Notes under the pieces: model-generated
Databases searched by the model: none
Seen by the model: only the letters and a program-made list of their open reading frames with translations
What the model was told of the DNA's origin: nothing
Made by a program: the position numbers and the translations under genes
Shown here: in pieces, positions 31,281-58,212 of the stretch
Layout of the letters: every line of letters begins with the position of its first letter
How positions within the stretch are numbered: the first letter of the stretch is position 1
Assembly: GCA_964536615.1 (NCBI GenBank)
Contig: CAZHYG010000001.1
Location: 134,200-198,199 of the forward strand
Source of the DNA: an uncultured Gammaproteobacteria bacterium
Lineage (GTDB): Bacteria; Patescibacteriota; Patescibacteriia; Magasanikbacterales; GWA2-37-8
Length of the DNA stretch: 64,000 nt
Reading direction: 5' to 3'

Positions 31281-32633
31281 ATGGAATACCCAGGAACAAA
31301 ATTCACCAGGCCGATCAGACAGTTCATGCTTATTTTTTTTATCAGCGCTTTTTTTATTATATCCCCTCTTTTAATCATGTATACTGCCGGCTATCGGTAT
31401 GACTGGCACAACGGCTTACTAAAAGAAACCGGATCCATCAGTATTGATATAGAACCGCAAGAATCGGTTGCCTATCTCAATAATATTAGACTGCAAAAAA
31501 CATTACCGATTCGCCTTAACAACATTACACCCGCAACTTACAACACCCGCCTAAGTGCTGAAGGTTATATTGATTGGTCCAAAGAAATAGAAGTAAAAAA
31601 TAAACAAACAAACTATATCAAAGAAATACGCTTAATAAAAAAACCAAAGCTGGAGCTGGCGGTAAGCGGTGTGATAAGCGATTTTTCTATATCAGCCGAT
31701 GGCGCATACATATTATTTACAACTCAAACTGATAAAAAATTTTTTACTTGGCTATGGAATGTACGCACTCAAGAAAAAACCCAGATTACTGGATTAGACA
31801 GCAGCGCACATCTTCAATATGCATGGGATGAAAAAAATAATCTTGCTGTCATCGCCCCTACAGAACAGCCGTTTGCGCAGATATATATATTAAACGCGGA
31901 ATCTAAAAAATTATTTACCATAGACCCCGGTGTGCCAATTACAAAATTTATCTGGAATCAAACCAGTGAGCCTCAAGTGTATTACAGCACAAAAAATCAG
32001 ATTTTTTTATACACCCCGACCACCAATAAATCACAGCTGGTTACCGCAAATACATATTTAGACTGGTCTATGGAAGCAAACGAATTGTGGACTTTGCAAT
32101 TTGCAACCAATACCGATACATATATAATCACCAAAGATATTTTGGGTTTTCCTACCACCATTCAAACTGTCAACAAAACTTATTTTACTACCAACGACCA
32201 GCCAAACAGCAATAAGCCGGCTCTTTTAAAAGTCAAAGGAAATACAGCGCTCATTGGCAATCTATATGGAAAAAAAGCCATACTCGCCAACCAAAATGGC
32301 CTGCATCCAATTGATACGACAAATTTCTTTGTTTCACCATATAATAACTGGTGGTTACTATGGTCGCAATGGGAATTATGGACATATAGTGATGGAGAAG
32401 AACCTCAGCTACTAAGCAGATCGGGCGAACAGCTACGCAGTGTTTTGCCACTAGATCAGTATAACACGCTCGCTCTTATATGGAACCAGCGAAGCACGAT
32501 TTTATTTCCATACTATCTGGTAAGCCATGAACTTATTGCCGAACAAATACATACGGTACACGCAGATACAAAAAATAAAACATTATATTTTACAAGCAAA
32601 ACCAAAGATGGAATTTGGAAAACCAGTTACTAA
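31281..32633 (+). CDS. PEGA-domain membrane-anchored protein with C-terminal beta-rich region
   Basis: N-terminal TM helix. PEGA-like segment (IDIEPQESVAYLNNIRL...ATYNTRLSAEGYIDW). W/Y-rich repeats at the C-terminus. 450 aa. Confidence 0.55.
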   Translation: MEYPGTKFTRPIRQFMLIFFISAFFIISPLLIMYTAGYRYDWHNGLLKETGSISIDIEPQESVAYLNNIRLQKTLPIRLNNITPATYNTRLSAEGYIDWSKEIEVKNKQTNYIKEIRLIKKPKLELAVSGVISDFSISADGAYILFTTQTDKKFFTWLWNVRTQEKTQITGLDSSAHLQYAWDEKNNLAVIAPTEQPFAQIYILNAESKKLFTIDPGVPITKFIWNQTSEPQVYYSTKNQIFLYTPTTNKSQLVTANTYLDWSMEANELWTLQFATNTDTYIITKDILGFPTTIQTVNKTYFTTNDQPNSNKPALLKVKGNTALIGNLYGKKAILANQNGLHPIDTTNFFVSPYNNWWLLWSQWELWTYSDGEEPQLLSRSGEQLRSVLPLDQYNTLALIWNQRSTILFPYYLVSHELIAEQIHTVHADTKNKTLYFTSKTKDGIWKTSY

Positions 32634-33855: not shown

Positions 33856-33951
33856 ATTTTATATTTAACTTTAATGAATAAATTAATTATTAATAACACT
33901 GTTATCGACCCTCTTAGCTCGAACAAATATTCGAGATAAACAGCAATTTGT

Positions 33952-34674
33952 TTAATTATTCTTCAAATACGTGCTCGGATTTTTTTCTTGCAGTTCTTCC
34001 AAGCGTTTTTTTCTTTCTTCAAGCCGCTTTTCAATTTTTGCTCTAATTTCTTTTTGGCGTTCAGTATTTTTTTCAGCAAGCTCTTCCATCAATTCTCTCG
34101 CTTTTTCTAATTTTTTTTCGGTATTATCAATACTGCGATTGATTTTTCTTACTTGCTCGCCTTCGTCGTTATTATCAATGTCGCGCGCCTGTTTGCGAGC
34201 TGTTTCCAGCTTCCGCTTTAGCACATCGCCTGTTTTCTCGTCCATATCTGTGGTAGTAGCCACCTGAATAGCTTCGTCTTTTTCTTCCAGCGCCACAGGC
34301 TTCTTTTTCTTTAAGACTAATCGTTCTTTTTCTCGGCGTTCAATTTGCTTCAGGTAAAACGCCGCTTTAGATTCCGGGGTAAATTTAGTGGCTTCTTCTA
34401 CGCGCTCCATAGCTTCTTTAACCGGAAATAATACGCTCCCTTCGGTTACCTCTGGACTGGCATACGCATATGCACCGCTACTGGTAGCCAGAATAACCAC
34501 CAAAAGAGCACTGGCCGCTATACGATGTACGAGTACAGCTTGGTACCATGGTGTTTTGCCAAAAGAACCATCCCAAGCAGACATTAAATCTGCACGTAGC
34601 TGTTTTTTAAATACAGAATCGGGCTTAACAGATCTTTTTAGTTTAAATAAGTTGTATTTTATTTTAAAACTCAT
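33952..34674 (-). CDS. Membrane-anchored anti-sigma-factor-like protein (DUF5667-like), module 1
   Basis: Overlaps the upstream ECF sigma gene by 4 nt. Short cytoplasmic N-terminus, one TM helix, then a coiled-coil periplasmic region. Paralogous to the 53686..55041 product. Confidence 0.55.
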   Translation of the reverse strand: MSFKIKYNLFKLKRSVKPDSVFKKQLRADLMSAWDGSFGKTPWYQAVLVHRIAASALLVVILATSSGAYAYASPEVTEGSVLFPVKEAMERVEEATKFTPESKAAFYLKQIERREKERLVLKKKKPVALEEKDEAIQVATTTDMDEKTGDVLKRKLETARKQARDIDNNDEGEQVRKINRSIDNTEKKLEKARELMEELAEKNTERQKEIRAKIEKRLEERKKRLEELQEKNPSTYLKNN

Positions 34675-35180
34675 ATACGTGATGACATTTTTTTGACAGC
34701 TCGATGCGCCGCCACTTTTACTGCCGATTCAGTCATCTGCTTCATTTCGGCAATCTCTGCATAACTATACCCATAAATATAGTGAAAGGTTACAATCTCT
34801 CGACTAGACTCGTCCAGCTCATCCAAAAACTCCTGCACAAAACGGGCGTTTTCATTCTTTTTAAATACATTTTTAGCAGAAATTAGCCAAAAAGAGTCGA
34901 GCACCTCACCGTCCTCATCCTGGGGTAAATCCGCAACAGGTTTAGTATCGCGGTAATAGTTAATAACATGATTTTTAGCAATTGTCATCAGCCATGCGGA
35001 TTTACTAACCGTCTCATCATAATCCGCAAAGTTTTTAAGCGCTTTCATAAATATCTCCGAAACTAAATCTTGCGCCAATTCTTTATCGCAATTAACGCGA
35101 AAAAAAACAAAGCGATACACTTTGTCTATATGATCGAGATAAAACCGCTCAAAAGCTTGTTTTGTATGTTTGTTAGACAT
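34671..35180 (-). CDS. ECF-type RNA polymerase sigma-70 factor, module 1
   Basis: Sigma70 region 2 (DLVSEIFMKALKNFADY...WLMTIAKNHVINYYR) and region 4 HTH (YSYAEIAEMKQMTESAVKVAAHRAVKK). 169 aa. Confidence 0.85.
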   Translation of the reverse strand: MSNKHTKQAFERFYLDHIDKVYRFVFFRVNCDKELAQDLVSEIFMKALKNFADYDETVSKSAWLMTIAKNHVINYYRDTKPVADLPQDEDGEVLDSFWLISAKNVFKKNENARFVQEFLDELDESSREIVTFHYIYGYSYAEIAEMKQMTESAVKVAAHRAVKKMSSRI

Positions 35181-49713: not shown

Positions 49714-52700
49714 TTATAAAGTATAGGTCAATGAAGAACCTGAAACTTCGTAAGAGTTTGAAGCGGAGAATGCACCTTGTTCACTGCCGTTAGCTGGTGT
49801 GTAGTAGTACAACAAGTTACCAGTGTTCCAAGCAGTTCCACTCCATCCGGTTGAACCAGCAATCTTGGAAGAAACCGTAACACTACCAGTTGACTTTTGT
49901 GCCAACATGTTGGTTGTATCAGCGGTAACGATAAAGGTTCTGGTTGTTCCAGGAGCAATGATAAAGTTATCAAGCAAGCTATTCTGGTCATTAGCAATAC
50001 CAAAGCCAACAGAAATTGGATTTGAAGTACTACTGTTTACAGTAATAGTTGAAGTGTTTGCAAGGTAAGTTCCTAACGCACCTGCGTTATCTTCATACAA
50101 TCTGAAGTCACTGATTGTGCCTCCAGTTGAACCAGCATTTCCTACTAAACCAGAAACGGTCAAGTTAACAGTAGTAGAAGCCAATCTCAAATCACGAGTA
50201 CCAGAGTTGGTAACAGAGAATTTGAAGATTTTAGCCTGACTGTCCAAAGGCAATGATGTGCCCAATGAAACAGCAGCTGCTGTTGGGTAAGCGTCGTGGA
50301 ATAAGTAAGAAGTAGATGTAGCAAGTCTGTATTCAGCACCACCTGCGTTGGATGCTGAGTTGTAGTTGATGTCAGCGGTACTAAGTAACGCTCCTGAAGC
50401 AGATCTAGCTTCTAAATCGGTATTACTATCACTCTTTACCACAAAAGCGGTAGAGGTGTTGTTGGTAATAACGCCAGAAGCATTAGTTGTGCCTTTCAAA
50501 ACGTATACTTTATAACTGTTCATTGGGATGAGAGAAGCAACACTTGTAAATACCACATCGCCATTTACATAGCTAGCGGTAGCTACAGGAGCAATGCCGT
50601 TTTCTTCATACAATGACAATGAGCCAAATGTACCCAAGGTTGTGGCAGCGCCAGCACCGTTTGAGTATACAGACTGCAATGTCAATTTTTCCAATGTTAC
50701 ATCATCGTTTGCAGCCGCAAATTTCCATTTACCGAGCTGTACGCCTGTTTGACCAGGTCCGTATACTTTAGAAATGGTGGTTGCGTCAGACACAGCAGTA
50801 ATGTTCAAGTTACCAGCACCAACAGTTACCTGTTGACCAGCAACTAAGTCACCACTACCACTTGTGTTACTTGATTTACCTGTATAGCTGTAACTTCTCA
50901 AAGAGGTTGTTACAACACCGGAAGCTGCAGAAACAACGTAAGCTTTCAATTGCAAGGTTACGGTTTGGCTCTTAGCAACAGTCAAATCAAAGGTATAGTT
51001 GTTAGAGGTACTAGCAACTGTACTGAGAGTTGTGCCTAATTGAGTTGAACCATTCCATAATGACATGTTCTGGAACATAGCGGAAGCCATACCAGAAGCA
51101 AGACCGAAGTTGAAACCAACGTTTGTCAAGCGTACATCTTCAGATGTACCAGCAGTACAAATGTACTGACCGATAACAGATGTAGAACCTGGAGCGCGAG
51201 TTACACTTCCCATTGCTGTATCCTTGTAACAAGTCAATGAAGTTGCACTAACTGTTAATTGGTTAGCAGCAGTACTGGTGTTAACAGATGTAGGTAAGTT
51301 ATCAGCAAAATCTAAGGTAGAAAGTCTCTTGCCATAGAAATTACCAATTTCAACTTTATAACTTACACCTGAAGTTGCGGTTGAATCAACATTACCAACT
51401 ACTTCTAAAACTTTAGTTTGGTTGGCAGTTAAATTGAGATAGCTTGATAGTGTGTTTTGAGCTCCACCTGCATACAAAGAAGCAGTAGAAGCAGCAACAG
51501 TCAAGTATACGGTTCCGTCTGTAGCATCACGAACAATTACATTGCCAGTAAGCTTAGTCTTTGAACCGCTGCCCTGGTTAATACCAAGACCCATCTTGCG
51601 CAATTCCATGTTTTCACCAACAGCTTTTACATCAAATTTAGCTAACACAATTCCTTGTGAGCCAGAAGAGATGTTACCAGCTGGGGAGTTTGCAGATTTA
51701 TTGAGTGTCAAAGTTCCAGAACCCATGTTAAACCAACCGTTTGTACTGTTTGTATCAGAGAAACTTGAAGGCAAAACATAGAAACCGGTTGTTACACCCT
51801 TCATCATTACATCGTAATCGCTTTGAATGTGTACGTTGAAGTTGCGGGTTGAACCGTTTACAACGTCTACTTTTACAGTAAGATCACGACTTGTACTCTT
51901 AGGTACAACGTAAGGAGAAGTGAAGTTAACAGTTACATAACGGTTACTCATTACAGCTGTTGTGCCAAGTTTTTCTCCACTTGGAGCGTAAACACTCCAG
52001 TTGGCGAGGTCATTATCTTGGATAGTACCAGCTACGTAGAAAGTCAATTTTGAAACTGCAACATCTTCATTACCACTTTGTTCGGTAAATCTGAATTTAG
52101 CAACTTCTTTTTGAACATCACCGATTTGTAAGTTACCAGATGCGGTACTTGCAGGTTGAGAGGAAGAACCACCAACTGAAAGACCGGAAATTGTGGTAGA
52201 AGCAAGAGAAGCATTACCATCAATGATAGCCATTTGGTTACCAACGATTGGGAATGAACCACCTACTGTACCATTGCTTGCAACATCAGTTGCAGCAGCA
52301 ACACTAAATCCTACCAAGCCGGAATTTGCAGCAGGTGCAATGTTTACGGCTACGGTTAAAGATTCAGAAGCGCCAGCGCCAACGAGTACTGGGTAAGATC
52401 CAAAACTTACAGTAATTTTGTTGTCTGAAGTCAAGGAAGTCATTACATCACCGTGGCGGTTGCCAGCAGCGTCCCAAACACTAACGCCAGTAATATTGCT
52501 GTTAGCAATCAAACCAGTTTTAGTAAGGGTAACACCAGTAACTTGAGTAGCTGCAGAAGCACTTAAGTTAAGTTTTAATACTTTGTTGTAAGCGGAACCG
52601 TCTGCAATGTTGCCAGCAGCTGGATTATCAGCAGCTAAAGTAACAGTGAGATTGCCTCCGGTTACAGGAGTTGAAGCAATAGCTCCGTCTTGAGTTCTGT

Positions 52701-53415
52701 TAGTTAAAACAGTCTCCAAAGCGGTAAGTTGAGTACCAACTGTAGTACCAGTTAAGTAAGCAGCAGGAACAGAGTGAACGAAAGCAGATTTAAATCTGTT
52801 AGCGGTCATGCCTGTAGCTGTTACTTCTCTAAGTACGTTACCAGCGGCAACATACCAAGTCTTACCATCTTTACTGACGAGCATACCTTCATGAACGGTA
52901 CCAGCAACATCGGCTCCTCTATTTACATAGTGAGGCCAGAATGCATCGGCAACAGTCATTACTTTGTAGCTAGCGCCATATAAAGCGGCAGCATCGGTAG
53001 TACTAATTTTTGCTAAGGAATTTCCTGGCAAAACAACATACAATTGATCTGAAGAAGGTCTCTTCACAACGTATGAACCTGGGCGGTAGTTAACAGCGCC
53101 TGGGTATGCACTAGGAACAGGTAAAGAATCAAAACATTCCTGAGTTACTGTTACGTAACCACCGTAGGAATTGTTTTCATTCCAACTCTTGAACTCATCT
53201 CCTGAAGGGAAATAGAGAACTTTTAAGTCTTTGTTGACAGAATAGATAGCTGCTTTACCAGATACCTTGATCATGTCACCAGCGGCAAGTGTTGGGCAAA
53301 CTGCAGCGTTAGCAGCAGATGGCAACAAAGCCGATACGCCGACGGACCACAACATGGTGGCGCCGACAACGGAAACCGTAAAGATTTTTTTTACGGATTT
53401 TAATACATCGGTCAT
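49714..53415 (-). CDS. Giant secreted low-complexity surface protein (1233 aa; T/S/G/N/A/V-rich, predicted all-beta)
   Basis: N-terminal signal peptide (KKIFTVSVVGATMLWSVGVSALLPSAANA). Very few charged residues. Recurring hydroxyl/Gly-rich segments. Sits downstream of the ECF sigma and anti-sigma-like pair. Confidence 0.6.
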   Translation of the reverse strand: MTDVLKSVKKIFTVSVVGATMLWSVGVSALLPSAANAAVCPTLAAGDMIKVSGKAAIYSVNKDLKVLYFPSGDEFKSWNENNSYGGYVTVTQECFDSLPVPSAYPGAVNYRPGSYVVKRPSSDQLYVVLPGNSLAKISTTDAAALYGASYKVMTVADAFWPHYVNRGADVAGTVHEGMLVSKDGKTWYVAAGNVLREVTATGMTANRFKSAFVHSVPAAYLTGTTVGTQLTALETVLTNRTQDGAIASTPVTGGNLTVTLAADNPAAGNIADGSAYNKVLKLNLSASAATQVTGVTLTKTGLIANSNITGVSVWDAAGNRHGDVMTSLTSDNKITVSFGSYPVLVGAGASESLTVAVNIAPAANSGLVGFSVAAATDVASNGTVGGSFPIVGNQMAIIDGNASLASTTISGLSVGGSSSQPASTASGNLQIGDVQKEVAKFRFTEQSGNEDVAVSKLTFYVAGTIQDNDLANWSVYAPSGEKLGTTAVMSNRYVTVNFTSPYVVPKSTSRDLTVKVDVVNGSTRNFNVHIQSDYDVMMKGVTTGFYVLPSSFSDTNSTNGWFNMGSGTLTLNKSANSPAGNISSGSQGIVLAKFDVKAVGENMELRKMGLGINQGSGSKTKLTGNVIVRDATDGTVYLTVAASTASLYAGGAQNTLSSYLNLTANQTKVLEVVGNVDSTATSGVSYKVEIGNFYGKRLSTLDFADNLPTSVNTSTAANQLTVSATSLTCYKDTAMGSVTRAPGSTSVIGQYICTAGTSEDVRLTNVGFNFGLASGMASAMFQNMSLWNGSTQLGTTLSTVASTSNNYTFDLTVAKSQTVTLQLKAYVVSAASGVVTTSLRSYSYTGKSSNTSGSGDLVAGQQVTVGAGNLNITAVSDATTISKVYGPGQTGVQLGKWKFAAANDDVTLEKLTLQSVYSNGAGAATTLGTFGSLSLYEENGIAPVATASYVNGDVVFTSVASLIPMNSYKVYVLKGTTNASGVITNNTSTAFVVKSDSNTDLEARSASGALLSTADINYNSASNAGGAEYRLATSTSYLFHDAYPTAAAVSLGTSLPLDSQAKIFKFSVTNSGTRDLRLASTTVNLTVSGLVGNAGSTGGTISDFRLYEDNAGALGTYLANTSTITVNSSTSNPISVGFGIANDQNSLLDNFIIAPGTTRTFIVTADTTNMLAQKSTGSVTVSSKIAGSTGWSGTAWNTGNLLYYYTPANGSEQGAFSASNSYEVSGSSLTYTL

Positions 53416-53560
53416 AATTTTATAAAATAATTATCCTCTGACCCTTCATCGCTTCGTAAAACGAATCGCCGTTGGGTCAAAGCTTTCCCCGTGTGGGGAT
53501 ACAAAAGCTTTGCGAGCTGATACCAGCCCTCGACCTGTTGCAATAGCCACTATTTAAACT
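53416..53560 (-). promoter_or_regulatory. Structured 5' leader upstream of the giant surface-protein gene
   Basis: Minus-strand stems GACCC...GGGTC enclosing CGAUUCG-uuuuac-GAAGCG, a CCCC-acac-GGGG hairpin, and two self-complementary AAAGCUUU boxes. No RBS at canonical distance from the annotated ATG. Confidence 0.35.
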
Positions 53561-53685
53561 CTTTTATTTCAACGTTCTTTCAGCCAAAGGCCTGCTAAAC
53601 ATTGAAACTCTCTCTCCTTTCTGGGATAAAACATTTTATCACAGAAAGGAAATTCTCAAAAATTTTTGAGAAGTCCTTTTTATAT

Positions 53686-55041
53686 TTATGGTTTTATTGC
53701 CGGGGTAGTAGTCGTTTTTATAGGCACTGTTGACGTGGTGGTTGTTACAAACTTAATAGTACTAGACTGACTAAGCACTATGCCAAACACACTTGAACTT
53801 GGCGTAGTTGTAACTGTTGCATTAGTACTACTTGGAACATTCACCACATCGGCAACCGCGGTTACAACCGGCAAGATTTGTTGCACTGCTTTTAAAGTGG
53901 CATCGGTAATTTTTTCCACTTCTGCTGTTGCTGCATTAACTTCTTTAATCTTATCAATTGCGGAAGAAAGATTGTCTTGAGACAACAACTCTTTCCCTTC
54001 ACTTACTGTTTTATCAGTTTCGGTACTTACTTTTTGAAAATTGGTTACAGCTTCTTGTGTTTGTTTTGAGGTTGCTTCAATTTTTTCTGATAACTGTGCG
54101 TTTTCAGCCGTAGTTGTCAGCGAAGTGCTTTTAGTTTCTTTGGCAATAGCGTTTGTCACTTCAGTTTTAACTACATTTATAGCTTTATTTACTTCAGTGA
54201 TACTATCTTTTGACTCAACCACATCTTTAGCTGCGCTTTGAAGTTGGGTGGTAATAGCTTCTTTTACATCGTCTTTAGAAACGGATTCGTCTCCCTGTAA
54301 ATGCTTAACAACCATAACTTCCACAGCTTTGACAGCTGTATCTTTAACAATACTTTTTACTTCTGATACTTGAGTAGCAAGATCGGCAGAATTTTCTTTA
54401 TCAGTACTGACCAATAAATTTACTTTTACTTCTTTTAACACGCCGTTAATTTCTTGAGTATTTTTACTAATATTCTTTACCAAATCCCCCGCCGAATCAT
54501 CTGAAGTTTTAATTTCTTCTAGTTTAGAGTTAATATTTTGAATTTCATTTTTGAGATCATCGACTGTTTGAGCCGCAATCTTTATTTTTTCAGGATTATT
54601 TTGAGAAACAATTGTTTTAGTTTCAACCGCTCGGCGCTTTGCAAATTCAAGATGTAATTTTGCTGCACTGTTAGTATCTCCAACCACCTCAGCTCCTTTA
54701 ACTTGAATGGTTTCAGTAGCCCGTTTAGTGGAATAGAGAAAATCTCCAGGTAAAGCTTGGTATGAAGCGCTCACTGTAGCAACCCAGCTACCCACACCCA
54801 TTGCAAGCACCAGAACAAAAGCAATCACCGGTCGCACTACGCGATGCACAAATGATTGAGGCAGGAATATTGCAAAAAATTCTACAAAGTTATCAAAAGT
54901 CATTTTGCGAGCAGGTTGCGCTGGAACAGTATTTCTAATCTGAGACAACAAAAGCTCGCGGTTATTTTTTAACCACGCTTCATTCGGCTTAACCTCTTTA
55001 TGCCGTAAAGTTTTTAATTGTCTGATTAGAATTTTCGACAT
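53686..55041 (-). CDS. Membrane-anchored anti-sigma-factor-like protein (DUF5667-like), module 2, with long coiled-coil and Thr-rich C-terminal tail
   Basis: N-terminus and post-TM segment align with the 33952..34674 product (L+..VKP...K.R..L.S; L..K.A.E; S.A...L....RR..E). Single TM helix. 451 aa. Confidence 0.55.
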   Translation of the reverse strand: MSKILIRQLKTLRHKEVKPNEAWLKNNRELLLSQIRNTVPAQPARKMTFDNFVEFFAIFLPQSFVHRVVRPVIAFVLVLAMGVGSWVATVSASYQALPGDFLYSTKRATETIQVKGAEVVGDTNSAAKLHLEFAKRRAVETKTIVSQNNPEKIKIAAQTVDDLKNEIQNINSKLEEIKTSDDSAGDLVKNISKNTQEINGVLKEVKVNLLVSTDKENSADLATQVSEVKSIVKDTAVKAVEVMVVKHLQGDESVSKDDVKEAITTQLQSAAKDVVESKDSITEVNKAINVVKTEVTNAIAKETKSTSLTTTAENAQLSEKIEATSKQTQEAVTNFQKVSTETDKTVSEGKELLSQDNLSSAIDKIKEVNAATAEVEKITDATLKAVQQILPVVTAVADVVNVPSSTNATVTTTPSSSVFGIVLSQSSTIKFVTTTTSTVPIKTTTTPAIKP

Positions 55042-55051
55042 ACTTTGACCT

Positions 55052-55633
55052 TTATTTTTTATCCAATAAATTTTTTAATTTTTTTAAACCTCTGTGCAGT
55101 GTCACCCTTACCGCAATAGCTCCCTTGCCCGTAATTTCGGCAATTTCACCCACATCCATCTCATCAACATATCTAAGGGTAATAACTTCTCTATATTCTT
55201 GTTTTAATTTTTTTAGGGCTTTAATAATTTTTTCTATTTCTATCTTCTCCCCAACCTTCTCTTCAATATTCACACTCCAAGCTTCTTTTGTTTCTAGCTC
55301 ATCTTCCAAATCGTCTTCTTCATTCTTTTTTACCAAAGAGATTTCTTTGTGATGTGATTTTTTTCGGTACAGATCTACAATCGCGTTACGCGCCAGCTTG
55401 TATAACAGGCCGCTAAAACTTTCAATTGCCTTTTTTTCACTCACATATCTCCAGGCTTTAAGGAACACCTCTGAAGTAATATCTTCAGCCTCTTCTCTAT
55501 TTGATACTTTAAAAAAAACAAAGCTGTAGATTTGCCCAGCATACATATCATATAGCTTCGCGAACTCTTCAGGATCTTGGTTTACGCGAAGTTTAAACAG
55601 AATGATTTTTTCTGATATTTTGTTACTAGGCAT
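55052..55633 (-). CDS. ECF-type RNA polymerase sigma-70 factor, module 2
   Basis: Region 2 (DITSEVFLKAWRYVSEKK...LYKLARNAIVDLYRKK) and region 4 HTH (MDVGEIAEITGKGAIAVRVTLHRGLKKL). 193 aa. Confidence 0.85.
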   Translation of the reverse strand: MPSNKISEKIILFKLRVNQDPEEFAKLYDMYAGQIYSFVFFKVSNREEAEDITSEVFLKAWRYVSEKKAIESFSGLLYKLARNAIVDLYRKKSHHKEISLVKKNEEDDLEDELETKEAWSVNIEEKVGEKIEIEKIIKALKKLKQEYREVITLRYVDEMDVGEIAEITGKGAIAVRVTLHRGLKKLKNLLDKK

Positions 55634-55707
55634 TAAAGAAGACGTACAAGTAGTAAAAATGTTACACTTCTATTTGTTTGCCTAAACATACAATAAAAGT
55701 GCTCCAT

Positions 55708-55736
55708 ATAATAGCAAAAAACCATTGTTTCGTCAA
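55708..55736 (-). promoter_or_regulatory. Putative sigma70-type promoter for the module-2 ECF sigma gene
   Basis: Minus-strand TTGACG-N17-TATTAT lies ~70 nt upstream of the start codon. The background is AT-rich, so chance matches are common. Confidence 0.35.
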
Positions 55737-55812: not shown

Positions 55813-55835
55813 TTTGTATACACAAGCGTATACAA
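55813..55835. promoter_or_regulatory. Operator-like imperfect palindrome TTTGTATACACAAGCGTATACAA (site 1)
   Basis: Matches site 2 at 22 of 23 positions. TTGTAT-N10-ATACAA architecture. Confidence 0.45.
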
Positions 55836-55870: not shown

Positions 55871-55918
55871 AAAATATATCAATTTGTATACACAAGTGTA
55901 TACAAATTGATATATTTT
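55871..55918. promoter_or_regulatory. 48-bp perfect palindrome (23-bp arms, 2-nt spacer) containing TTGTAT-N10-ATACAA (site 2)
   Basis: AAAATATATCAATTTGTATACAC-aa-GTGTATACAAATTGATATATTTT. Verified by reverse-complementing the left arm. Confidence 0.6.
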
Positions 55919-55943: not shown

Positions 55944-55972
55944 TTGACAAAAAACTAAAATTATGCTATATT
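55944..55972 (+). promoter_or_regulatory. Sigma70-type promoter of the HTH gene (TTGACA-N17-TATATT)
   Basis: Consensus -35 hexamer, 17-nt spacer and near-consensus -10. Site 3 palindrome overlaps the -10 and the start site. Confidence 0.55.
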
Positions 55973-55994
55973 TGTATAGATTAATCTATACAAA
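55971..55994. promoter_or_regulatory. 24-bp perfect palindrome TTTGTATAGATTAATCTATACAAA (site 3) overlapping the promoter -10/+1
   Basis: 12-bp arms with no spacer. Shares the TTGTAT-N10-ATACAA frame with sites 1 and 2. Confidence 0.55.
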
Positions 55995-55998
55995 TTCT

Positions 55999-56364
55999 AT
56001 GGATAAACCAATACAGGCCTCTGACACGGAAAAGCCTAAAGAAGTTATTAGAGTCTCAATCTCTGAGGCAGCCAAGCTTTTTGGTGTAAATTCACAGACA
56101 ATTAGACGAGCTATTGCCGCAAAAGAAATTGTATACATAGTCGTTGCAGGACGATACAAGCTTAACTTTGAAAGCTTAGTAAAGTGGTCTCAACGGCATA
56201 CTACCATTAAAAATAAATTGGAAAATAAAGGTATTGGACAATTTGTAGGAAATTGGAAAATTAAAAACCCCCTATACTCGCCGGCTTATCGCAAACCTTT
56301 ACCCGCTCAACCGACACCAGAAGCAGCGAAACTTTCTGAAAACCCCGAAATTTCCAACCAATAA
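55999..56364 (+). CDS. Excisionase/MerR-superfamily HTH DNA-binding protein (probable autoregulated repressor)
   Basis: ISEAAKLFGVNSQTIRRAIAAKEIVYIVVAGRYKLNFESLVKW matches the excisionase-family HTH_17 pattern. Start set at MDKPIQ, because the ORF-track start at 55963 lies inside the promoter. Pro-rich C-terminal tail. 121 aa. Confidence 0.6.
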   Translation: MDKPIQASDTEKPKEVIRVSISEAAKLFGVNSQTIRRAIAAKEIVYIVVAGRYKLNFESLVKWSQRHTTIKNKLENKGIGQFVGNWKIKNPLYSPAYRKPLPAQPTPEAAKLSENPEISNQ

Positions 56365-56421: not shown

Positions 56422-58212
56422 TTGTATAAAGGTTATAAAAAGGATATAATAAATTATACAATTTTTTATATGATACGCTTTCTTAAACACCATTATCACA
56501 CGCATTATCACGGCATCTACCAACATGCAAAAAAATTATTCGCTTTCGATCTTGCGCTTCTGGCCACAGCGACTATTATGATGGCAGGTAGTATTTTTCT
56601 TTTCTTCTGGAAACCAAGCATAGCGGGACTTATCGACCTAACTTTATCTTTGGGCGAAACACGAGTTAAAAGCGGCGATTATGTGCGTCTTACTTTGGAA
56701 TATACAAACCATAGTAAATACACTTTATCTGAGGTTTCTTTGGGCGTTAAACTTCCAGAAGGTTTTATCATTGATCGCAGCAAAACATCGAAAGAAATAT
56801 TTTCAGATCAGCATACTTTTCCTACAGTCACTGAAATTAAACCGGGCGCTTCCAAACAACTTGAAATTAACGGTCGGTTTTGGTCCGACCCTTCTCAAGA
56901 GTCAAAGTTTATCGCAAACTTATCATACCGACCTGATGCAAAAAAAACGCGCGACCAAAAACTTGCTTCGATTATTTCACAACTATCCGAAAGTGTTCTC
57001 TGGGGCGAGCTTTCCTCCCCCACCACCACGTTTGCGAACAGCCCCGTTAAGTTTACGTATACCCTCCATAACACCAGCGATCAAACGCTAGAAAACATTT
57101 CATTGCTACATAATTTTGAACAAGCAATATCGGAGAAAGATTCCCAAAAAATTACTTTGCCTGCACAAAGCACTAAAAGCTTTACCGGCACCTTTATCAG
57201 CATGTCTGCGCCAGGTAATTACAAAAAAACGATCACGCCGATAATAACTATAAACAATCACCCTGTTGCCCAAACACCTTTCACGCAAAACATAAACAAC
57301 ATCGTGCCTCAAATTGAAACTCGAGCAGATCTTGTTAACAATATTGTTTTTGCCGAACCGGGGCAAACTATCCCTGTGCGCATTTCCTGGGAAAATAAAG
57401 GGTCTATGACTATTACAGATGCAACCCTGCACATACGCTCAAATTTTCCAAACTCAATTGACTGGAAAAAAACCGCAACTGAAGCTCGCGCACAAATAGA
57501 AGATAGCGGTATTTACTTTAATAAAACAAACAGAACCAGCCTGGCTGACGGCAAACCAAATAGTAACGATTCGTTTGTTATAAATATATATCTTAAACCG
57601 ACACTTAATATTTCCAATACTGAAAATGCTCGTTTGGAAATTTTTCCAACTATTGAAGCAAGGATCGCAGGAATCTCTGACCAAACAATAAATCAACGCG
57701 GCACAGGAATCTCTACAGCACTGGCTACTGAAGTTTCTTTCGTCGGGACTGAGGCTCGCTACTACACAGCCGAAGGTGACCAGCTCGGCCGCGGCCCACT
57801 TCCTCCGCAGGTAGGAAAAACAACCAAATACTGGATCTTTATCACCATTGCTAACACCACAAATGCTATAGAAGATGTAAGTCTGAGCACATCCTTGCCA
57901 GAAGGAGTCGAGTTTACCGGAAAACAAAGCACCACCATTGGCCCTGCTCTAGTATTTAACTCAACCAACCGATCAGTGTCATGGAACTACTACACACTAC
58001 CTGCCAACAGCCAAACAGGTTTGTATTTTGAAGTTGCGGTAACTCCATCTAACAGCCAGGCTGGTAAAAATCTACGTCTTACCAACACTATTTCCCTATC
58101 TGCCACCGACAGTACGATAAAAAAGAATTTAAATATCTCCCACTTGCCCATTTCAAACAATCTCAACATAAACGATGCCGGAGCACGATCCGGTTCCATC
58201 GTTAAATACTAA
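56422..58212 (+). CDS. Large membrane-anchored/secreted beta-repeat protein (DUF11/CARDB-like conserved-repeat surface protein)
   Basis: N-terminal TM segment (FDLALLATATIMMAGSIFLFFW) then repeated ~100-aa modules (GDYVRLTLEYTNHS...LPEGF; TFANSPVKFTYTLHNTS). 596 aa. Confidence 0.55.
   Translation: MYKGYKKDIINYTIFYMIRFLKHHYHTHYHGIYQHAKKLFAFDLALLATATIMMAGSIFLFFWKPSIAGLIDLTLSLGETRVKSGDYVRLTLEYTNHSKYTLSEVSLGVKLPEGFIIDRSKTSKEIFSDQHTFPTVTEIKPGASKQLEINGRFWSDPSQESKFIANLSYRPDAKKTRDQKLASIISQLSESVLWGELSSPTTTFANSPVKFTYTLHNTSDQTLENISLLHNFEQAISEKDSQKITLPAQSTKSFTGTFISMSAPGNYKKTITPIITINNHPVAQTPFTQNINNIVPQIETRADLVNNIVFAEPGQTIPVRISWENKGSMTITDATLHIRSNFPNSIDWKKTATEARAQIEDSGIYFNKTNRTSLADGKPNSNDSFVINIYLKPTLNISNTENARLEIFPTIEARIAGISDQTINQRGTGISTALATEVSFVGTEARYYTAEGDQLGRGPLPPQVGKTTKYWIFITIANTTNAIEDVSLSTSLPEGVEFTGKQSTTIGPALVFNSTNRSVSWNYYTLPANSQTGLYFEVAVTPSNSQAGKNLRLTNTISLSATDSTIKKNLNISHLPISNNLNINDAGARSGSIVKY

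Follow-up and report, generated by a model that had tools for sequence, protein, structure and literature searches.

Ultra-small Patescibacteria carry a surface layer that is seen by microscopy. How such a cell might encode its coat protein and control the coat gene is the question raised by a locus in the DNA of an uncultured member of the Magasanikbacteria (Candidatus Magasanikbacteria, Patescibacteria), of which we analysed a stretch of 64 kb (the window). On its minus strand lie genes for an extracytoplasmic function (ECF) sigma factor, a membrane partner protein with a DUF5667 domain and, after a spacer, a large secreted protein of 1233 amino acids (aa). The three open reading frames (ORFs) and the 270-nt leader described in an original prediction, which was made from the letters of this DNA alone, were confirmed. 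We propose that the sigma factor, its partner, a folded RNA in the spacer and the large gene form a single conserved expression unit of Candidatus Magasanikbacteria, a reading to which we assign a probability of roughly 0.55. The unit comprises the following features, from its upstream to its downstream end:

55708..55736, minus strand: sigma-70-like promoter TTGACG-17-TATTAT with a TG, facing the sigma gene (consensus match only)
55641..55665, minus strand: predicted ECF-type promoter GTAAC-N16-CGTC, ending 7 nt before the ATG of the sigma gene (sequence match)
55052..55633, minus strand: ECF (group 4) sigma factor, 193 aa (Pfam Sigma70_r2 and r4_2; TIGR02937)
53686..55041, minus strand: single-pass membrane partner, 451 aa, presumed anti-sigma factor (Pfam DUF5667 and inspection)
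53416..53685, minus strand: spacer of 270 nt between the partner and large ORFs
49714..53415, minus strand: large protein, 1233 aa
49633..49662, minus strand: strong intrinsic terminator after the large gene (terminator scan)

The arrangement of these genes is strictly conserved. We gathered 100 loci by scanning species-representative genomes and metagenomes and read the gene order at each with tblastn. All 70 loci with a full-length homologue of the large protein and the partner gene upstream have the same order, in which the ECF sigma factor is followed by the DUF5667 partner, a spacer of 180–540 nt and a protein of about 1230 aa. This order is kept down to 27% identity of the large protein, and tblastn did not find the sigma/partner pair in loci that match the N-terminal domain of the large protein alone. 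In every locus that could be judged, homologues of the surface protein keep both the sigma/partner pair and the leader structure, in line with the coupling that the original prediction had put forward.

Several of the bins that contributed loci carry other taxonomic titles. Bins L003–L005, L007, L009, L011, L012, L014, L016, L019 and L023 are titled 'uncultured Gammaproteobacteria' and L006 is titled 'Candidatus Udaeobacter'. Their loci are collinear with those of the Magasanikbacteria, and the bins are probably mislabelled.

The first gene of the unit codes for an ECF sigma factor of group 4, which has regions 2 and 4 only within its 193 aa and passes the family model TIGR02937 (94.4 bits; cut-off 42.9). 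Among solved structures, SigW (5wuq, E=6e-17) and a sigma factor of the ECF subfamily (6dxo, E=1e-16) are closest to it. The protein does not reach a named ECF subgroup (BldN, SigW, SigX or others); every equivalog model stays under its cut-off, and the top specific NCBIfam model, the BldN family, gives 108.6 bits against a cut-off of 206.45. Pfam and TIGR02937 thus upheld the sigma factor of the original prediction, and its paralogue was also confirmed in the window (34671..35180, 28% identity).

Immediately before the ATG of the sigma gene, every locus listed has the sequence TGTAACA-N15-CGTCT(A/T)CTAT(A)ATG. GTAAC and CGTC always lie exactly 16 nt apart (53 of 53 loci). The GTAAC-N16-CGTC motif occurs once per locus at the position of the sigma start (about 58 loci), with a core that ends 5–8 nt ahead of the predicted start codon in most of them, and its match at 55641..55665 is the only one in the window. 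Its AAC-type −35 and CGT-type −10 elements are those predicted for an ECF autoregulatory promoter. The SigW promoter has the consensus TGAAAC-N16-CGTA, to which the predicted TGTAAC-N16-CGTC promoter appears close. Because the motif abuts the ATG, it implies that the sigma mRNA would be leaderless or near-leaderless and autoregulated. Furthermore, a housekeeping-type site (TTGAC-N16-19-TRnnWT) is present in 25 of 51 loci at a median distance of 75 nt upstream of the ECF promoter, and 21 of these sites have a TGn. A position weight matrix built for the ECF promoter found no copy in any of the partner–cargo spacers (top score −7.5, which is background), and a copy before the large gene was ruled out by this matrix and by pattern search. 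Sigma-dependent expression of the large protein, as originally suggested, is thus left with the promoter predicted before the sigma gene and is plausible only by read-through from it.

The partner gene starts 10 nt past the sigma stop codon and adjoins the sigma gene in all 70 loci. Its product contains the DUF5667 domain (PF18915; 38.2 bits against a gathering cut-off of 27, aa 96–197, E=2e-9). Inspection of the translation revealed one hydrophobic segment at about aa 60–90 and a Thr-rich tail, giving a layout of a short N-terminal cytoplasmic part, a transmembrane segment, DUF5667, a long helical region and the tail. The single-pass, N-in topology and the position of the gene directly downstream of a sigma gene are those of membrane anti-sigma factors, and we presume that the partner acts as one. 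The protein has no Cys in its first 60 aa, so the HxxxCxxC motif of the ZAS class is absent. A homology search with aa 1–200 returned just 2 matches, and a literature search retrieved no paper mentioning DUF5667.

Between the partner and the large gene lies a covarying structured RNA, a previously undescribed motif of about 110–150 nt. The elements of the spacer in the window, from the partner stop codon to the start codon of the large gene, are these:

53613..53652, minus strand: hairpin H1, close behind the partner stop codon, with the 3' arm GGAGAGAGA (fold)
53566..53608, minus strand: variable hairpin H2, which holds a 12-codon ORF at 53602..53564 (fold)
53506..53548, minus strand: RNA module M1 (covariance model R1), made up of the P1 5' arm (53548–53540), the bulge AACAGGUCGA (53539–53530), the P2 hairpin (53529–53514) and the P1 3' arm (53513–53506)
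53487..53498, minus strand: hairpin P3, CCCC-ACAC-GGGG, after a conserved UUGUAU (fold; variable in distant loci)
53436..53482, minus strand: RNA module M2, a long stem P4 enclosing hairpin P5 (per-sequence folds and model R2)
53416..53435, minus strand: A/U-rich unstructured stretch before the start codon of the large gene, with no Shine-Dalgarno site

The spacer of the window (53416..53685) folds with a minimum free energy of −91.6 kcal/mol (z = −6.1), and 22 spacers sampled across the family all have z ≤ −3.5 (median −7.6; z-scores from mononucleotide shuffles). Rfam 15 has no family for this RNA. The window reaches gathering scores with tRNAs only and, at E ≤ 10, the region 53300..53800 gives only far-sub-threshold matches of microRNA type, to hairpin H1.

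The most uniform part of the spacer is M1. The sequence AGGTCGA (with at most one mismatch) is present in 70 of 70 spacers, 86–167 nt ahead of the ATG of the large gene. Folded one by one, the spacers give a shared layout almost everywhere: stem P1, a 5' bulge of 9–11 single-stranded nt with the sequence (N)AAAGGUCGA, hairpin P2 (most often with a GNRA-like or RUAA tetraloop at its tip) and the 3' arm of P1, which abuts P2. RNAalifold on plain MAFFT alignments recovered P2 only for M1 and nothing for M2, and the structures were therefore given by hand to covariance models. Model R1 scores 44.6 bits at M1 in the window (E=3e-10), where it has no second match. In 1.07 Mb it finds 76 matches, exactly one per locus, on the sense strand and just upstream of the large gene; they include at least 10 loci outside the seed, and no match falls in paralogue loci.

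The covariation analysis called for in the original prediction supported a conserved fold, and the nested helices seen at 53416..53560 match conserved covarying elements at 53436..53548. In the R1 alignment 79% of the cells are paired, with a covariation of 0.61 compared to 0.227 ± 0.014 in shuffles (0 of 500 reach 0.61) and 0.09–0.24 in slid controls. P2 is 95% paired and 6 of its 6 pairs show compensatory changes. P1 is 67.5% paired, blurred by register shifts, and its arms pair better with their own partners than with foreign ones in a permutation test (−8.3 versus −4.6 kcal/mol, p ≤ 2e-4). One position of P2 is a G-U pair in 39 of 65 sequences, which identifies the sense strand as the strand that folds. 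Conserved covarying structure at a fixed position before one gene family is a feature of riboswitches and other cis-regulatory RNAs, and the invariant bulge points to a specific reader, protein or ligand.

Other roles for parts of M1 were tried and rejected. A pseudoknot between the M1 bulge (GUC) and the GAC of M2 is not supported: both are invariant, and variants of the bulge occur without a compensating change (by eye). Pairing of the bulge with the start-codon region was ruled out by the lack of conservation of that region, and a sigma-54-type reading of TGGC...TGCA in P1 by its wrong spacing (by eye).

M2 is less uniform than M1. In the near group, which is all that model R2 recovers from its too narrow seed, 92.6% of the cells are paired and 16 of 19 pairs are compensatory (covariation 0.53 versus 0.30). 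In most relatives G-A(bulge)-C and GCGC border P5, and the M2 of the window is a divergent variant. When searched with a strict regular expression for the M2 signature, 23 of 64 leaders match, compared to 4 expected. In most loci the 3' end of M2 lies 13–21 nt before the AUG.

An element related to the M1 bulge occurs in the paralogous module 1 of the window, which has the gene order dnaJ, sigma factor, DUF5667-like partner and DUF5666 protein, kept in six further loci. Its partner–cargo spacer (33856..33951, minus strand) contains GGGTCGA at 33905..33911. The window has 4 RGGTCGA sites, and 2 of these are on the sense strand of the two partner–cargo spacers, compared to about 0.015 expected. 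An AAGGTCG-like element (AAAAGGTCGT or GGGGTCGA) is found in 3 of 6 orthologous module 1 spacers (L101, L104 and L105), 46–50 nt before the cargo ATG, and it lies within a CTGTT(T)AT/ATAACAG-type stem in the window and in L104. Such an element may belong to sigma/DUF5667 operons generally. That the AAAGGUCGA-bulge RNA, M1 and M2 together, represents a new class of sensing or factor-binding RNA of these operons as a whole seems to us rather unlikely. In that case, ultra-small bacteria would set the amount of coat protein by an RNA switch inside an ECF sigma operon, a layout undescribed for any surface layer (S-layer).

M1 and M2 might nonetheless act at this locus as a ligand- or protein-sensing regulator, riboswitch-like or autoregulatory, that switches the translation or stability of the coat mRNA. 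Their bulges and junctions contain invariant nucleotides, in contrast to stems that change and covary, as is usual for aptamers and protein-binding sites; the 3' strand of M2 ends at a fixed distance from the AUG, and the AAGGUCG element recurs at the regulator–cargo junction of module 1. We regard a sensing role as doubtful. Neither a candidate ligand or binding protein nor an expression platform with alternative pairing was found, and the bulge variants GGCCGA, GGUUGA and AGUCGA come without a compensating change in M2 (by eye). Furthermore, the module 1 element differs in topology and is absent in 2–3 of 7 orthologous loci. The folded RNA most likely serves as a processing, stabilising or factor-binding element.

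The conserved nucleotides of the bulge could also be read as DNA, with AAGGTCGA as a promoter element (a −10-like GTC box for an ECF-type sigma factor) and not as an RNA feature. Indeed, it has a GTC core in common with the CGTC −10 box, closer relatives have GTTAAT exactly 16 nt upstream (the spacing of GTAAC-N16-CGTC), and the sequence recurs before the cargo gene of module 1. We consider this very improbable. The 5' arm of P1, which would fall within the promoter spacer, covaries with its partner strand downstream of P2 and must therefore be transcribed; the distant group lacks the −35-like box, and the site does not rise above background with the ECF position weight matrix.

The remaining hairpin of the 5' half, H2, bears on an upstream ORF (uORF) of 12 codons that the original prediction had highlighted together with a strong GGAG. 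The ORF exists (53602..53564) but is not conserved in the closest relatives, and the H2 segment is absent or different in most loci. The GGAG turned out to be the 3' arm of H1. A regulatory uORF or leader peptide was ruled out by its absence or difference in L026, L001 and most other loci, and the uORF is a chance ORF.

Shine-Dalgarno-like sites are rare in this DNA as a whole. GGAG, GAGG or AGGA is found at −20 to −4 in just 2 of 47 genes of the window, the start codons are preceded by A/U-rich regions, and several directly follow TATAAT-like boxes. These features suggest that translation in this bacterium may be initiated independently of Shine-Dalgarno sites, often on leaderless mRNAs.

How far transcription extends can be gauged from the signals at the gene junctions. 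Downstream of the large gene, terminator-like sites are present in 27 of 33 loci; they occur in just 7 of 64 partner–cargo spacers, where all 7 are weak, and a terminator between the partner and its cargo was thus ruled out. In 53 of 64 spacers no more than 10 nt separate the partner stop codon from the first hairpin, which is H1 in most loci. The inner stem of H1 shows compensatory differences between loci (by eye), and no U-tract follows it. Because H1 adjoins the partner stop codon and has compensatory changes, any RNA that contains it must start inside or before the partner gene. From this position, the lack of an ECF promoter before the large gene and the lack of a terminator between the genes, we infer that a single transcription unit is favoured.

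The large gene could alternatively have a housekeeping promoter of its own, located within the spacer or the 3' end of the partner gene. In that case the folded RNA would be a long stabilising 5' untranslated region (UTR) like that of Lactobacillus slpA, and the sigma/partner pair a neighbouring regulator without read-through. Strong dedicated promoters and long, structured 5' UTRs are classical features of S-layer genes (PMC3666127). Closer relatives have an AT-rich box (TTAAT, TATTAA or TATAAT-like) 3–6 nt before P1, and promoter-like boxes lie near the start codons of many genes of the window. However, the AT-rich box is absent in the distant group, where P1 and H1 persist, and the promoter scan gave no strong sigma-70-type match in the spacer. 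The position and compensatory changes of H1 also place the start of the RNA upstream of such a promoter if it lay in the spacer, and an invariant single-stranded bulge of 9 nt in 70 of 70 loci would be needless in hairpins that merely stabilise an mRNA. We therefore judge a separate promoter unlikely.

In the operon model that we slightly favour, transcription would start before the sigma gene, from the autoregulated ECF-type promoter and, in about half of the loci, from the housekeeping-type promoter some 75 nt upstream. The transcript would run through the sigma gene, the DUF5667 partner, the folded intercistronic RNA and the large gene and stop at the strong terminator. The sigma factor and the DUF5667 protein would form a sigma/anti-sigma switch that also governs the coat-protein gene, by read-through, so that expression of the whole unit would follow the condition of the envelope. 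The folded RNA, as a processing, stabilising or factor-binding element, would uncouple the abundant coat protein from the regulators encoded on the same transcript, so that it could be produced in far larger amounts than they are.

Is the large protein a coat protein? Its predicted parts are these:

53305..53415, minus strand: signal peptide, aa 1–37 (translation inspected; predicted cleavage after ANA)
52675..53304, minus strand: N-terminal domain of about 210 aa, probable cell-envelope anchor module (AlphaFold2 and distribution of homologues)
49717..52656, minus strand: six tandem divergent beta-sandwich domains of about 150 aa, D1–D6 (AlphaFold2 model and profile hidden Markov models)

By inspection, the N-terminus is a Sec-type signal peptide that ends in SAANA before the A of the mature protein, as originally noted. 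The mature protein has a mass of 123 kDa and an isoelectric point (pI) of 5.7. Its richness in Thr, Ser, Gly, Asn, Ala and Val, also noted originally, is real (61.6%), but 'almost no charged residues' was overstated, as Asp, Glu, Lys and Arg make up 12%. The large protein has no sequence match in Pfam, NCBIfam or the PDB. A search of 5.8 billion proteins retrieved 192 homologues; the named ones all come from Patescibacteria or Magasanikbacteria, and nearly all of the approximately 120 matches listed are 1210–1290 aa long. Some homologues have PG_binding_1 instead of the N-terminal part.

The AlphaFold2 model of aa 38–1233 (mean predicted local distance difference test, pLDDT, 88; predicted template modelling score, pTM, 0.48) begins with an alpha/beta domain, after which come separate all-beta domains of the beta-sandwich type. 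The giant beta-solenoid first envisaged for this protein did not survive: in the model, the DSSP pattern and dips in pLDDT mark separate sandwich domains. Foldseek searches of the PDB matched generic tandem immunoglobulin-like (Ig-like) proteins only. The search for internal repeats, another check proposed at the outset, found none by self-BLASTP, but profile hidden Markov models of the six segments each detected most or all of the other five (independent E-values from 9e-18 to about 0.1). As the segment profiles detect one another, the protein contains six cryptic repeats of about 150 aa. D1–D6 have no significant relation to the DUF11 protein encoded nearby.

The N-terminal domain, modelled alone, reaches a pLDDT of 95 and a pTM of 0.90 and consists of three beta-beta-beta-alpha-beta-alpha units. 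It has no Pfam match, and its fold matches are weak (periplasmic repeats of EccB and a few phage proteins). The domain (about 205–210 aa) is present in 897 representatives of clusters at 50% identity, in proteins of 200–3159 aa, always at the extreme N-terminus (after the signal peptide) or the extreme C-terminus of secreted proteins. There it is combined with fn3, Calx-beta, MBG, Beta_helix or Peptidase_C25 domains. For example, a nearly complete contig of 963 kb encodes one full-length homologue of the large protein and has the same domain at the C-terminus of two other proteins. This distribution suggests that the domain probably anchors proteins to the cell envelope, and it is a candidate for a new anchor family of Patescibacteria.

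Secretion, a swappable terminal domain common to surface proteins and an array of Ig-like beta-sandwiches are all features of S-layer proteins. Most often, S-layer proteins join an anchor domain to an Ig-like array (bioRxiv 10.1101/2025.04.02.646754; PMC13635256). The modelled architecture fits that of a Gram-positive S-layer protein, and the most likely role of the large protein, we infer, is that of main surface-coat protein. The S-layer-like character envisaged in the original prediction was thus borne out for the architecture and not for family membership.

Comparisons between close loci revealed a mosaic pattern of divergence. The large protein of the window is 92–100% identical to that of L003 over the first 500 aa and only 62–79% identical over the last 700 aa, in a locus where the sigma factor, partner, helix-turn-helix (HTH) protein and leader are about 92–100% identical. 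Compared to L026, the large protein is 94% identical and the sigma factor and partner only 73–75%. This mosaic suggests recombination or diversifying selection on the outer domains.

The GC skew of the window is about 0 at 50001..54000, compared to −0.1 to −0.24 elsewhere. The skew-free stretch coincides with the large gene, whose unusual amino-acid composition may account for it.

An adhesin or host-attachment protein of an episymbiont, which would form no lattice, is a less likely alternative to an S-layer subunit. The Foldseek matches include adhesin-type tandem Ig-like proteins such as PrgB, and the divergence of the C-terminal 700 aa between near-identical strains, next to a conserved first 500 aa, is what would be expected of a ligand-binding part exposed to hosts or phages. 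However, S-layer proteins too typically have fast-evolving outer domains (bioRxiv 10.1101/2025.04.02.646754). The tightly fixed length of the homologues listed and a domain number fixed at six are unlike adhesins with variable repeats, and the 963-kb contig has one full-length copy alongside other proteins that have only the anchor in common with it.

Several points weigh against an operon that ends in a coat gene. A coat protein normally needs far higher expression than a sigma factor. Co-transcription is argued from a lack of promoters and terminators that can be recognised, in organisms with poorly known signals, and a promoter may lie inside the 3' end of the partner gene. The GTTAAT box of closer relatives, 3–6 nt before P1 and exactly 16 nt before GGTC, could itself be a promoter. 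All loci come from one order-level lineage, and their synteny may be partly inherited rather than selected. The partner has no anti-sigma domain in Pfam or NCBIfam, no zinc motif and no solved relative. Finally, the large protein matches no known S-layer or anchor family (SLH, CWB2, SbsC-like or others).

The regulatory part of the unit resembles SigW–RsiW of Bacillus subtilis and kindred pairs of an envelope-stress ECF sigma factor and a membrane anti-sigma factor. SigW is the nearest solved relative, a two-domain sigma factor is followed by a single-pass membrane protein, and the predicted promoter resembles the SigW consensus. The partner described here differs in having DUF5667 and no zinc-binding or recognisable anti-sigma domain. 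Also unlike SigW–RsiW, the sigma mRNA is apparently leaderless and the gene for a large structural protein appears joined to the unit via a folded RNA.

In a literature search, no paper connected Magasanikbacteria with an S-layer, and none directly linked an ECF sigma factor to an S-layer gene. A close parallel is the sigma-BldN/RsbN system of Streptomyces, in which an ECF sigma factor controls the chaplin and rodlin proteins of the surface sheath (PMC6101532). As in the proposed unit, surface-coating proteins are the main output and RsbN is unlike known anti-sigma factors (PMC6101532); the BldN family is also the best specific model for the sigma factor of the window, though below its cut-off. 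In contrast, the chaplin and rodlin genes are separate regulon members with BldN promoters of their own, whereas the cargo gene here lacks a promoter of this ECF type and appears to belong to the same transcription unit.

The large protein shares with SbsC, SbsB, Sap and EA1 a length of about 1100–1230 aa, a signal peptide and a swappable terminal anchor common to other surface proteins (PMC13635256; bioRxiv 10.1101/2025.04.02.646754). Like them, it has a string of Ig-like beta-sandwiches, a weakly acidic pI and fast-evolving outer domains. Unlike them, it has an undescribed type of anchor; it has no sequence or Pfam relationship to these proteins, and its anchor is an undescribed three-repeat domain and not SLH, CWB2 or SH3.

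Long folded 5' UTRs that stabilise the mRNA, and transcription from two promoters, are both on record for S-layer genes (PMC3666127). The slpA leader of Lactobacillus acidophilus is likewise long and folded, precedes a highly expressed coat-protein gene and has two promoters upstream (PMC3666127). The RNA described here differs from it in being intercistronic, in starting at the stop codon of the preceding gene and in having single-stranded nucleotides that are invariant across an order-level lineage. For the proposed uncoupling, the cggR-gapA operon of B. subtilis offers an analogy. In that operon, cleavage by RNase Y uncouples the regulator from the abundant product. The two layouts are alike in that regulators lie upstream, a presumably abundant product downstream and a specific RNA element at the junction. 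They differ in that neither a cleavage site nor a nuclease was identified here, and the likeness is one of analogy only.

An ECF-controlled surface-protein unit and a structured S-layer leader are known kinds of system; what is new here is the strict five-gene locus together with its RNA motif, promoter motif and anchor domain. If the operon model holds, this would be the first S-layer-type gene wired into a sigma/anti-sigma feedback via a structured intercistronic RNA. The locus also provides leads for further work: a candidate coat protein with a new and widespread anchor domain, an ECF promoter motif in an unculturable lineage and a covarying RNA motif that can be synthesised. The RNA and promoter motifs could mark coat-protein genes in other uncultured lineages.

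Upstream of the sigma promoters lie two divergent genes and a pair of palindromes:

55815–55834 and 55885–55904, no strand assigned: two copies of the palindrome TGTATAC-N6-GTATACA, between the HTH gene and the sigma promoters
55963..56364, plus strand: HTH_17/excisionase-family DNA-binding protein, divergent (Pfam HTH_17, 29.4 bits; cut-off 27)
56422..58212, plus strand: membrane protein with DUF11/CARDB-like beta-sandwich repeats, divergent (Pfam DUF11, E=1.3e-11)

The HTH protein scores 27.9 bits against TIGR01764, just under the cut-off of 28.8. It is 51–92% identical across loci, including those in which the large protein is only about 40% identical, and is better conserved than the large protein in distant loci. 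The DUF11-repeat protein adjoins the HTH gene in most loci. The TGTATAC palindrome has 4 strand-matches in the window, compared to 0.01 expected, and matches in the same intergenic region of 46 loci, mostly as 2–3 sites about 70–85 bp apart. The HTH protein probably uses these palindromes as its operators, and the unit would then have a second layer of regulation.

Elsewhere in the window, ARAGORN called a 93-nt tRNA-Gln at 31942..32034, within an ORF (31281..32633). Rfam finds three tRNAs in the window and none at this position, and the ARAGORN call is probably a false positive.

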